Shown here piece after piece: positions 49,149-52,422 of a stretch of DNA of 64,000 nucleotides. The translations under genes and the position numbers were made by a program. This DNA comes from a virus: IMG/VR virus record IMGVR_UViG_3300028597_000007. One strand, 5' to 3'. Under the pieces are notes generated by a model. That model was not told the DNA's origin, searched no databases, and saw only the letters and a program-made list of their open reading frames with translations. The stretch's first letter is position 1. Each line of letters opens with the position of its first letter.

Positions 49149-49233
49149 GGCGACCTCCTGAGTGTGTGCATACCATTCTTCAACCACCACGCTCTGGAGA
49201 CAATCTATCAGACCTCACATACGGAGCAATACC

Positions 49234-50130: not shown

Positions 50131-50637
50131 ATGCGTGCTGAAGATCCGTGGTTGGTTTGTCGTTATTCCCCGATGCAGATTGATGGAGCGATCTACTTCG
50201 TTACTGCTGTGAGTCTGCCGGCTGGTCAGTTGCGTCGTGACAAGATGCCGCAGCTTGTGACCTACGTTGATCCCCGCACTGGTGTTGAGTACACTCGCAC
50301 CAAAGAAGACTTCATGACTCGCGCCCACTATGCGGACTTGGACCAGGTTCAGGAGATTCTGGACTTCCTCAAGCCGCATCATTATCGAGCTGTGCAGATC
50401 TCGTCTGGTCACTCTGGTGTCATTCCGATCACCATGGTCATGAAGTCCTACCCCGATGCCCGCGGCCAATGTCTGACCTTCAACGATCGTGAGCTGATCA
50501 AGAAGTTCAGCGCAAACCTCGACCCACATGCCTGCTTCAATTCTATTGTGGTTGGGGCGCGGTTGTTGGAAGAGCATTCGGCCACTCGTTTTGTTCGCCT
50601 TGCCCGTATTCTGGGCGGCACTATTTGGAGCGTTTGA
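50131..50637 (+). CDS. Hypothetical protein
   Basis: Contiguous operon; LVTYVD...YTRTKEDF segment. Confidence 0.75.
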   Translation: MRAEDPWLVCRYSPMQIDGAIYFVTAVSLPAGQLRRDKMPQLVTYVDPRTGVEYTRTKEDFMTRAHYADLDQVQEILDFLKPHHYRAVQISSGHSGVIPITMVMKSYPDARGQCLTFNDRELIKKFSANLDPHACFNSIVVGARLLEEHSATRFVRLARILGGTIWSV

Positions 50638-50638
50638 A

Positions 50639-50896
50639 ATGGTAATGCGTCAATGGCCAGCCAAGGTCAACTTCTCTATCACCTATCTGGTGGCCAATGG
50701 TCCTGAGGGTGTAGATGAAGGTGGTGAGTTTGCTACCGAGCATCTGACCGTCAATGTGGAAGCCCTGTGTGCTGACCATGCTCTGCGCAAGATCAAGGAT
50801 GAGTTCCTGAAGATCCATCCAGGTGCGGCCTTCAAGTTTGGCCCCGTGCTCTGGTATCCGGCAGAGCAGATTGGTAAGGTTGCATTAACCTTCTAA
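50639..50896 (+). CDS. Hypothetical protein
   Basis: Contiguous operon. Confidence 0.7.
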   Translation: MVMRQWPAKVNFSITYLVANGPEGVDEGGEFATEHLTVNVEALCADHALRKIKDEFLKIHPGAAFKFGPVLWYPAEQIGKVALTF

Positions 50897-50939
50897 GGGC
50901 CTTGCTAGATGTATTAGCAGGAATTATAAGGATCGCACG

Positions 50940-51224
50940 ATGCGAACACTGATCGTGGGAGGGTTTGGAATGGCTCTGGCGAGGGCGCTTTTGCGCGAGG
51001 TCGCCATGCCTGTGGTTGAGTGCGATGCCGTGAGCGGCGTCGACTTCGACTATGAGGCCGACTATGAGCCTGGTTCCAAGTTCTCCCGACCATGTGCGGG
51101 GCTGTGTCGACCGGTACCTGCGCGCCTTCAACCGTACCGCACTGTAAAGGACAGTGTATGGACAGCTGGGGTCGCGCACAGTCCGAGAAGACCTTTTGAA
51201 CTCAAGGGTGTAACGCCGGCATAG
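50940..51224 (+). CDS. Hypothetical protein
   Basis: AAGGA SD. Confidence 0.55.
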   Translation: MRTLIVGGFGMALARALLREVAMPVVECDAVSGVDFDYEADYEPGSKFSRPCAGLCRPVPARLQPYRTVKDSVWTAGVAHSPRRPFELKGVTPA

Positions 51225-51384
51225 CCCACTATCAAATCCGGCCCATAAGTGAAATAGGAGCATCCCACGAACTACTGGCTTTACTGGTTAGCATTGCTAA
51301 TCGGGTCAGTGGTCGCAATACCAGTTGTGCTCACGCGGAACACTACCGTTCTCTTGCCTTGGACCGTTGGGGTCGGGCTTGTGG

Positions 51385-51820
51385 AAACGTGTACCGGGTG
51401 TGCGAGGCTGGTATGGAAAAGTGTGTTGGCTGGGATTGGCAAATCGCCTAATCCAAACCTGAATACTTTCCAAGCGACTGCCTGACAAACTCACAGGCCG
51501 CATTGCCGAAAGCAGGGGGTTTAAATGGACCCCATTAAGAGACCTCCGGTTTTCTCTTGTATATCTGCACAGATGTTCTGCTCGTGTAGCCTTGGGTTAA
51601 ACTGAGTTCCCACGGACTCAGCCCTTGAGCGCACCCAGACCTAGGTAGTGACCCCCCGGCGGTACCCCCAGTCCAAGTAAGGCCAACACGTCCCCGTGGG
51701 GGATACGTGAAGAGCTGCTTCCTTGACTCTCTAGCACCACCAGCAGGCTGACGGCTGGTTGGTTTCACTGAGAGCTTGTGTGGCCTTGAGTCCGGTAGGG
51801 TACTCGTCGGGTACACGTTT
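51385..51820 (+). ncRNA. Candidate large structured non-coding RNA (about 435 nt)
   Basis: 11-bp closing helix AAACGTGTACC/GGTACACGTTT, nested 8-bp helix, at least eight local hairpins, no credible ORF over most of it. Confidence 0.5.
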
Positions 51821-51842
51821 ACTTATGCCCTTGGCCCGTTTA

Positions 51843-51879
51843 AACCAAATCTCAGACCTGAATTATCACTCTGAATGAC
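51843..51879 (+). promoter_or_regulatory. Putative early phage promoter (37-nt repeat)
   Basis: AACCAAATCTCAGACCT-GAATTATCACTC-TGAATGAC. Confidence 0.75.
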
Positions 51880-51933
51880 CGTCAGTAATGATTGGTTTTT
51901 CTTATTGTCCAATACCTACAAGGAATTAGTTTC

Positions 51934-52422
51934 ATGACTGTACGTTCCATCGACGAGCATCTGAATAACACAGCGCTCGAACGCATCCGCACTACCTTCG
52001 ATGCCCTGGTGGAAAACATGGGGGTTGACATCGAAGCCCTGCAATCTGGAAGCCTGCCGTACTTCCACATCCCCGAAGACCTCATCAAGCCAAACATCGT
52101 CAAGCACGCTGAGGGCGAGCTTGCTTATGGCCTCGATGAGAATGGCATTGAGCACATCGCCGTGTTCAACGTCATGGGTTGGGCCATCTTTGGCCGTAAC
52201 GGTGAGTTCACCCTGCCTGACGGTGTGGCTGAACAGGACCCGCTGGACGTTGTAGCCATCGACGAGCGCTACGACTACTGGTACGATCTGCTGAGCGAAT
52301 ACGTTCGTGCAGTGGACATGCCAGACAAAATCGACGACCCCTACGACGACGAGATCAATGTCGAAGCGGGCTTCGGTGACGCCGACGAAGACGGCGAACC
52401 AATCGATCCTAACGACGAATAA
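51934..52422 (+). CDS. Highly acidic protein
   Basis: AAGGA SD before ATG 51934; about 40 D/E versus about 9 K/R in 162 aa (hand count). Confidence 0.85.
   Translation: MTVRSIDEHLNNTALERIRTTFDALVENMGVDIEALQSGSLPYFHIPEDLIKPNIVKHAEGELAYGLDENGIEHIAVFNVMGWAIFGRNGEFTLPDGVAEQDPLDVVAIDERYDYWYDLLSEYVRAVDMPDKIDDPYDDEINVEAGFGDADEDGEPIDPNDE

Follow-up and report, generated by a model that had tools for sequence, protein, structure and literature searches.

A conserved RNA fold with an apparent membrane-peptide gene inside it in uncultured phiKZ-like jumbo phages

Introduction

The type I toxin mRNAs hok/mok and timP are folded mRNAs of a few hundred nucleotides that encode a small hydrophobic membrane peptide. 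Their ribosome-binding site lies in secondary structure, they adopt long-range 5'-3' fold-backs or alternative conformers, and they are easily taken for non-coding RNAs. The timP mRNA was first annotated as the non-coding RNA RyfA, and alternative folds control its translation (PMC11228461). ROOL and GOLLD (Rfam; bioRxiv 10.1101/2024.12.08.627333) are phage-borne, multi-helix RNAs of several hundred nucleotides with conserved loops and optional branches. The sRNA005 of phage 201phi2-1 and the phiKZ sRNA upstream of gp182 are shorter than 250 nt, originate in 5' UTRs and are located ahead of a tail gene (PMC11512511).

The element described here lies in a stretch of 64,000 nucleotides of viral DNA, hereafter the window. 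It resembles the type I toxin mRNAs in that a small hydrophobic peptide ORF of 59-74 codons was found within the RNA, in that the ribosome-binding site is predicted to lie in partly covarying secondary structure, and in its putative long-range fold-back and alternative conformers. In contrast to those mRNAs, its peptide resembles neither Hok nor TimP in sequence or by Pfam, no gene for an antisense RNA was seen at the element, translation would apparently start at ACG, the non-coding 3' domain, at ca. 340 nt, greatly exceeds theirs in size and ornateness, and the carrier is a lytic jumbo phage, in which the element closes a run of nucleotide-metabolism genes. The features of ROOL and GOLLD listed above recur in the element, but the element gave no covariance-model match to them even at E<=10, occurs in phiKZ-like jumbo phages (ca. 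55% G+C), contains a conserved ORF and, known as it is from sequence alone, gives no sign of multimers. With the 201phi2-1 and phiKZ sRNAs it shares a conserved structure, an occurrence in nucleus-forming jumbo phages and a position beside a conserved gene, but it is ca. 630 nt long and apparently sits at the 3' end of an operon. To our knowledge, it is rare for a large RNA fold to be conserved and yet of unknown function, and we know of none described for phiKZ-like nucleus-forming jumbo phages. In such phages, RNA must exit a protein shell for translation.

Results

Genomic setting and relatives

The window belongs to the genome of an uncultured phiKZ-like jumbo phage. Its virion protein of 918 aa shares 37% identity with the counterpart in Xanthomonas phage Xoo-sp14 and has 288 matches among phiKZ-type phages. 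An earlier note on this DNA had pointed to a gene-poor gap, and the gap is real: the ca. 700 bases from the stop at 51224 to the ATG at 51934 contain no called or long ORF. The same gap was left without a gene call in seven of the eight distinct relatives obtained by protein look-up. A gene for dCTP deaminase precedes the element by 2 kb, the neighbouring genes are all on the + strand, and base composition shows no local shift at the element.

Relatives were gathered in three ways, namely by look-ups of the protein that the 162-aa gene encodes, by pattern scans of DNA and by a profile search, which together yielded 13 distinct related metagenomic sequences that were grouped into nine lineages, all of them phiKZ-like jumbo phages. 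The closer lineages are the window with L009, L001/L008/L010, L003, L005-7 and L004, and the distant ones are L011-14, L015, L016 and L017. Several of the contigs measure 214-232 kb, and one contig, with repeats at its termini, is complete. Wherever the contig was long enough (L001, L003, L005-L009, L011, L012 and L015), the gene order was kept: dCTP deaminase, several small genes, a gap of 460-870 nt and a gene for a protein of 148-166 aa. The gap is 75-95% identical within the closer lineages and 54-56% identical to that of L004, so that its conservation equals or exceeds that of the flanking coding DNA (ca. 74%).

A covariance model of the Ha-Hd region (Table 1) found exactly one copy per source, including a single copy in each of two whole contigs. 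A candidate copy in Xoo-sp14 was discarded as noise, the best hit of covariance model R1 there being 12.8 bits and antisense inside a CDS. When the gap and its 162-aa neighbour were compared with 50,697 phage records (blastn with near and distant settings, tblastn), no match was obtained; no phage record matched the window at the DNA level, and a pattern scan of bacterial and archaeal genomes did not find the element.

The downstream gene adjoins the element in every case, and its product of 148-166 aa has a strongly acidic conserved tail (DMPDKI..P.DDEI.VE.GFGDAD.DGEP). The 162-aa protein of the window falls in no Pfam or PHROG family, and its Atlas model is poor. On the other side, the upstream 94-aa ORF stops ca. 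25 nt later in the lineage of the window than in most relatives, so that in the window its final codons run into the 5' strand of the closing helix; in most relatives this strand falls beyond the stop.

Table 1. Positions in the window of the features of the element and of its neighbours
Feature	Position	Strand	Remarks
Upstream 94-aa ORF	50940-51224	+	compared with L001 3029-3313
Closing helix, 5' strand	51203-51213	+	CAAGGGUGUAA; pairs with 51823-51833
Hairpin H0	51215-51242	+	GCCGG/CCGGC stem; conserved loop with CCCACUAUCAAA
Shine-Dalgarno-like AGGAG	51256-51260	+	6 nt ahead of the ACG codon
Small ORF, unannotated (putative)	51267-51485	+	72 codons, ACG to TGA; hydrophobic N-terminus YWLYWLALLIGSVVAIPVVL
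Long interrupted hairpin inside the ORF	51318-51414	+	20-22 of 26 positions pair in lineages A-C
Hairpin Ha	51474-51501	+	GCG...GCCUG / CAGGC.CGC; holds the TGA stop of the ORF; loop ACAAACUCA
Central sub-domain	51502-51649	+	closed by AUUGCC/GGYAGU, 51502-07 with 51644-49; contains Hc, Hd and H5
Hc	51516-51533	+	invariant GGUUUAAAUGGACC
Hd	51536-51559	+	five double-change pairs
H5	51602-51621	+	loop CCAC; three double-change pairs
Long 3' arm	51655-51811	+	51655-77 with 51785-811; 51714-18 with 51780-84
Arm terminal stem	51727-34/51768-74	+	present in every lineage by alignment reading
Closing helix, 3' strand	51823-51833	+	UUAUGCCCUUG; UUAUGC invariant in all nine lineages
Promoter-like motif	51852-51866	+	TCAGACCT-NN-A-N-TAT; bounds the element, precedes the 162-aa gene
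Downstream 162-aa gene	51934-52422	+	own Shine-Dalgarno, ATG and promoter-like motif

Evidence for a conserved fold

Pair counts were made on alignment A7, which holds 10 sequences. The proposed pairs number 135 in total and are 91-96% paired across relatives; 36 of them changed on both sides as compared to 0-6 in shifted controls, although these counts are not independent events, because the sequences are related and only about nine lineages are known. In the 3' domain, 95.6% of cells at the 71 pairs were paired, while the value fell to 33-43% when the partners were slid; 20 pairs showed double changes (0-3 in slid controls), and none of 500 shuffles scored as high. In the 5' half, the 64 pairs were 90.7% paired, with 16 double-change pairs against 2-6 in controls. 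The covariation in homologues that the earlier note had named as a check is thus strong.

RNAalifold energies of the alignment were compared with those of columns shuffled within conservation classes. For the 3' domain, the resulting z was -6.67 with the + strand as against -2.62 with the - strand; it was -2.63 (+) and -0.70 (-) for the 5' part, and -0.76 (+) and +0.31 (-) for the neighbouring 162-aa gene. G.U pairs occupy 80 of 593 cells in the 3' domain. Since these cells would be A.C on the - strand, the RNA is read from the + strand, in keeping with the strand preference of G.U pairs reported before.

The comparison of folding energy with shuffles was less telling. With single sequences and dinucleotide shuffles, the 436 nt originally delimited gave a z of -3.68 (+) and -2.79 (-) and the full element gave -4.23, but a coding stretch of equal length (50500-51130) gave -3.17, which makes the single-sequence z a poor filter in this genome and not specific. 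Taken from the alignments, we regard the comparative evidence for a conserved fold as decisive. The structured non-coding RNA proposed in the earlier note is thus borne out as a conserved + strand phage RNA fold, while the 5' third (51267-51485) appears as a conserved ORF, as described below.

Architecture of the element

As predicted from the alignments, the element is one closed RNA module of ca. 631 nt on the + strand (51203-51833), larger than the 435 nt first assigned to it; its ends are joined by CAAGGGUGUAA and UUAUGCCCUUG, and the TATGCC that had been listed as a separate feature belongs, as TTATGCC, to this closing helix. All 11 pairs of the helix form in the window, L009, L003 and L004, 10 of 11 form in L005-7 and eight of 11 in L001/L008, and L004 carries a compensatory change from A-U to G-C. 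In L015, the equivalent strands UAAGGGC and GCCCUUA pair with a probability of ca. 0.9. Next to this helix, H0 shows two independent double changes, G-C to A-U in L001/L008/L010 and C-G to U-A in L004. A pairing of GGCAUAG (51218-24) with UUAUGCC was considered and dropped, H0 and the helix from 51203-13 being the ones that covary.

Inside the ORF, the 21 pairs of the 51318-51414 hairpin in helix 4 include seven with changes on both sides. The 3' domain (51474-51833, about 340-360 nt) is non-coding, its indels of 1, 2, 5, 31 and 38 nt keeping no frame. At its 5' edge, Ha is 98-100% paired and almost invariant in lineages A-D, and L011 has a hairpin at the same position with an altered stem and a CAAAC loop. 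In the central sub-domain, the GGUUUAAAUGGACC of Hc is a 14-mer that is invariant in all nine lineages, and the stem below it covaries (GGGG/CCCC, GAGG/CCUC, and ACGG/CCGU in L016). Helices 8-11 of the long arm are 93-100% paired with 11 double-change pairs, and L015 keeps the arm with further compensatory changes. Two branches are optional: that at 51687-709 is cleanly absent in L001/L008/L010 and L004, and that at 51737-62 in L009 and L004. L009 lacks the whole of the latter inner hairpin, and a neat 6-bp stem-loop remains.

Several of the local elements named in the earlier note recur in this architecture. Hairpins 51516-33, 51537-58, 51602-21 and 51687-709 are backed by covariation, while that at 51561-76 found no support; 51433-54 is covered by a supported helix at ca. 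51432-51462, although its exact 4-bp register fails in relatives. The stem 51727-34/51768-74 enclosing 51737-62 holds in every lineage as far as the outer stem is concerned, while the inner hairpin is lost in some. The 11-bp helix 51385-95/51810-20, which bounds the 435 nt first delimited, exists in the window as described, but it is perfect there only and is not the conserved closure: L009, which is 95% identical, has two mismatches, and the other relatives form 5-8 of the 11 pairs. L005 has two double changes at the ends of this helix, and a weaker version in relatives is possible. The nested 8-bp helix 51613-20/51787-94 exists as described, with 6-8 of eight pairs everywhere and two double changes in L004, but it competes with the better-supported arm helix 9 as well as, as had been pointed out, with the local hairpin H5; it possibly represents an alternative conformer.

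The 3' tail is complementary not only to its partner in the closing helix but also to GGGGGUUUAA (51515-24), the 5' strand of Hc, the two sites being similar boxes of the form RRGGGUKUAA (51204-13 and 51515-24). In L016, the pairing of the tail with the Hc strand extends over 12 of 13 positions with a probability of ca. 0.7. This dual complementarity suggests a switch between two tail pairings; no covariation discriminates between closure and the pairing with 51515-24.

Comparison with known RNA families

A search of the window with 4227 Rfam models at gathering thresholds, among them RNase P, GOLLD, ROOL, OLE, 6S, tmRNA, group I/II introns and hok-related entries, gave no match. Nothing relevant appeared at E<=10 on 51100-52000 or at E<=5 on the loci of four relatives, and ARAGORN predicted no tRNA or tmRNA gene in the window. 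The failure to match tRNA, tmRNA, RNase P, 6S and group I/II introns noted earlier therefore holds in Rfam and ARAGORN. Bacterial RNase P RNA is of similar size and has a similar multi-helix look, and a GGAAA run is also found in the element; identity with it was rejected, with no RNase P model match at E<=10 and with the GGAAA falling within the conserved ORF. A group I/II intron was likewise rejected: no intron model matched, the downstream gene has its own Shine-Dalgarno, ATG and promoter-like motif, and the upstream ORF is closed by stops in all lineages, which counts against an intron-interrupted gene. Judged by these searches, the element is a structured RNA of no described family.

A small ORF within the fold

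One frame of the 5' part is open in all 10 close sequences with 64-72 codons, and the orthologous ORF measures 59-74 codons across relatives. The net difference in length is divisible by three, even in L004 (54% identical). Between lineages B and C, dN/dS is 0.27-0.29 in the ORF frame as compared to 0.75-1.7 in the other two frames; between the window and its relatives it is weakly frame-specific (0.46-0.74 versus 0.58-1.06), and the codon periodicity of substitutions in the latter comparison is not clear and thus uninformative. Synonymous runs are seen in the alignment (GTT/GTA/GTG and GAA/GAG at V-E, and the WKSVL block), and the differences of L004 within WKSVLAGIGK are mostly synonymous. 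A second frame is also open across the region in the window.

The Shine-Dalgarno-like AGGAG is invariant in all 10 sequences of lineages A-D. It sits in a local hairpin (helix 2) that is 93% paired, and its predicted pairing probability is 0.7-0.98 in L001, L003 and L004. No canonical start (ATG, GTG or TTG) is conserved in lineages A-D, and ACG is a very weak start in bacteria. L017 has ATG exactly at the position of the ACG (CACATGAC versus CACACGAAC), followed by the shared TTGATC..TGG. In L011, the codon after the ACG position is ATG, and the gene finder called that 59-aa gene.

The orthologues all open with a hydrophobic, Trp-containing segment despite nucleotide divergence, and protein identity across the family is 15-20%. 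In the C-terminal half, the frames of the two super-clades differ relative to the conserved GGUAUGGAA, so that only the N-terminal part looks protein-constrained family-wide. No homologue of the peptide was found, and none of six orthologues falls in a Pfam or PHROG family. From these patterns, we consider that the ORF is probably genuinely coding, and it appears to be a membrane-peptide gene that starts at a rare ACG codon.

Transcription context

The promoter-like motif lies directly 3' of the element in every relative. It has eight matches in the window, where 3.3 are expected, and five + strand copies stand just ahead of gene starts, including that at 49208 before the dCTP deaminase gene. 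The + strand copies (1867, 23626, 49208, 51852 and 55919) are 19-82 nt from the gene starts and end in TA(T/C). The motif may mark a promoter class of the phage clade's own RNA polymerase. Because no further copy separates those at 49208 and 51852, the simplest reading makes the element the 3' end of the 49208 transcription unit, and it would thus terminate a gene run consisting of dCTP deaminase and four small genes. A sigma-70 promoter scan found none. The - strand of 51000-52000, searched for motif-type promoters only, carries no copy of the motif; no antisense partner RNA was visible, and the - strand fold signal is weak. TTATGCCC was considered as a recurrent promoter and was not enriched, and a terminator called at 51800-51814 is actually part of the long arm.

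Discussion

We tentatively favour, by analogy with type I toxin mRNAs, the hypothesis that the element is a self-locking mRNA for a membrane peptide. The fold of the RNA itself would set both the timing and the amount of synthesis of a membrane-active peptide, and it would do so by three means: sequestration of the Shine-Dalgarno sequence in a hairpin, a start codon that is near-cognate and weak, and the 5'-3' fold-back. The 3' domain would serve as a lock or stabiliser, as in the hok and timP mRNAs, and the invariant 3' tail, by pairing with either 51204-13 or 51515-24, could act as a conformational switch. If the fold does control a membrane-active peptide, phages would have their own equivalent of the control seen in type I toxin mRNAs. 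A point against the self-locking mRNA is that the invariant loops in the 340-nt 3' domain exceed the apparent needs of a simple lock.

The same loops make a trans-acting role a serious rival, since they are invariant over nine lineages. According to this explanation, which we hold to be rather doubtful, the 3' domain (ca. 51474-51833) would be a free-standing RNA cut from the 3' end of the operon, of which the ORF would be the last gene, and it would work as a ribonucleoprotein scaffold, a protein sponge or an anti-defence decoy. The strongest structural signal (z -6.67) indeed resides there, the invariance of GGUUUAAAUGGACC and UUAUGC fits contacts with a partner, loops of the CCCAC type recur three times, branches come and go as in ornate non-coding RNAs, and conservation is above that of the flanking genes. 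Against it, the closing helix pairs the 3' tail with a stretch that precedes the ORF, and the ORF region is itself in the conserved fold, both of which argue for one unit. In addition, no processing site or separate promoter is visible, and no partner protein was found, the adjacent 162-aa protein being without family and poorly modelled. If the 3' domain does act in trans, it would be a new RNA class.

A combination of the two appears unlikely to us, in which the 3' domain would be the first representative of a novel class of large structured RNAs that act in trans and are confined to nucleus-forming jumbo phages (e.g. a ribonucleoprotein core or an anti-defence decoy), and would be co-transcribed with an ACG-initiated membrane microprotein gene and physically coupled to it by a switchable helix. 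The element would then be a dual-function RNA.

It is improbable that the whole 631 nt are a single non-coding RNA with the open frame a by-product of RNA constraints. The ORF region is base-paired with covariation, lineages A-D have no canonical start, GGUAUGGAA is kept at the nucleotide level though the frames differ between clades, a second frame is open in the window, and codon periodicity between the window and its relatives is not clear, all of which would suit such an RNA. It would not explain why the frame stays unbroken in all lineages, even in L004 at 54% identity, and indels sum to multiples of three, nor why dN/dS is lowest in the ORF frame, why synonymous runs occur at V-E and in the WKSVL block, why the hydrophobic N-terminus is kept despite nucleotide divergence and why L017 has ATG at the homologous codon.

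An element acting at the DNA level (a replication origin, a packaging site or another protein-binding region) would account for a large gene-poor stretch with many inverted repeats that is more conserved than its flanks, but it is very improbable, as the 80 G.U cells are A.C mismatches on the other strand, the alignment z-score is asymmetric between strands and the compensatory changes preserve pairing rather than sequence, and an origin in particular is unlikely because of the one-strand G.U pairs and the lack of iterons or tandem repeats in the element, where base composition does not shift locally either.

If the ORF is indeed coding, the element also illustrates how a gene can hide, in that a near-cognate ACG microprotein ORF would have been missed by callers in seven of eight relatives and read as non-coding RNA. 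The element is single-copy with a covariation-backed architecture and is directly amenable to probing or imaging.

The hairpin at 51515-51535, invariant as it is, resembles a sequestered translation start (GGGG/GAGG, UUUAA, AUG GAC C). A second ORF from the AUG in its loop was rejected, as the 15-27-codon ORFs that follow are not conserved in frame. The UUUAAAU at the same hairpin is a classic slippery heptamer, yet no ORF crosses it. Loops of the CCCAC or CACG(A/G)AC type are found at three sites, 51226-51230 in H0, 51263-51273 in the Shine-Dalgarno hairpin and 51608-51618 in H5, and could be repeated binding sites for one partner. In L009, the 3' tail carries a tandem duplication of TTATGCCC (2880-2900).
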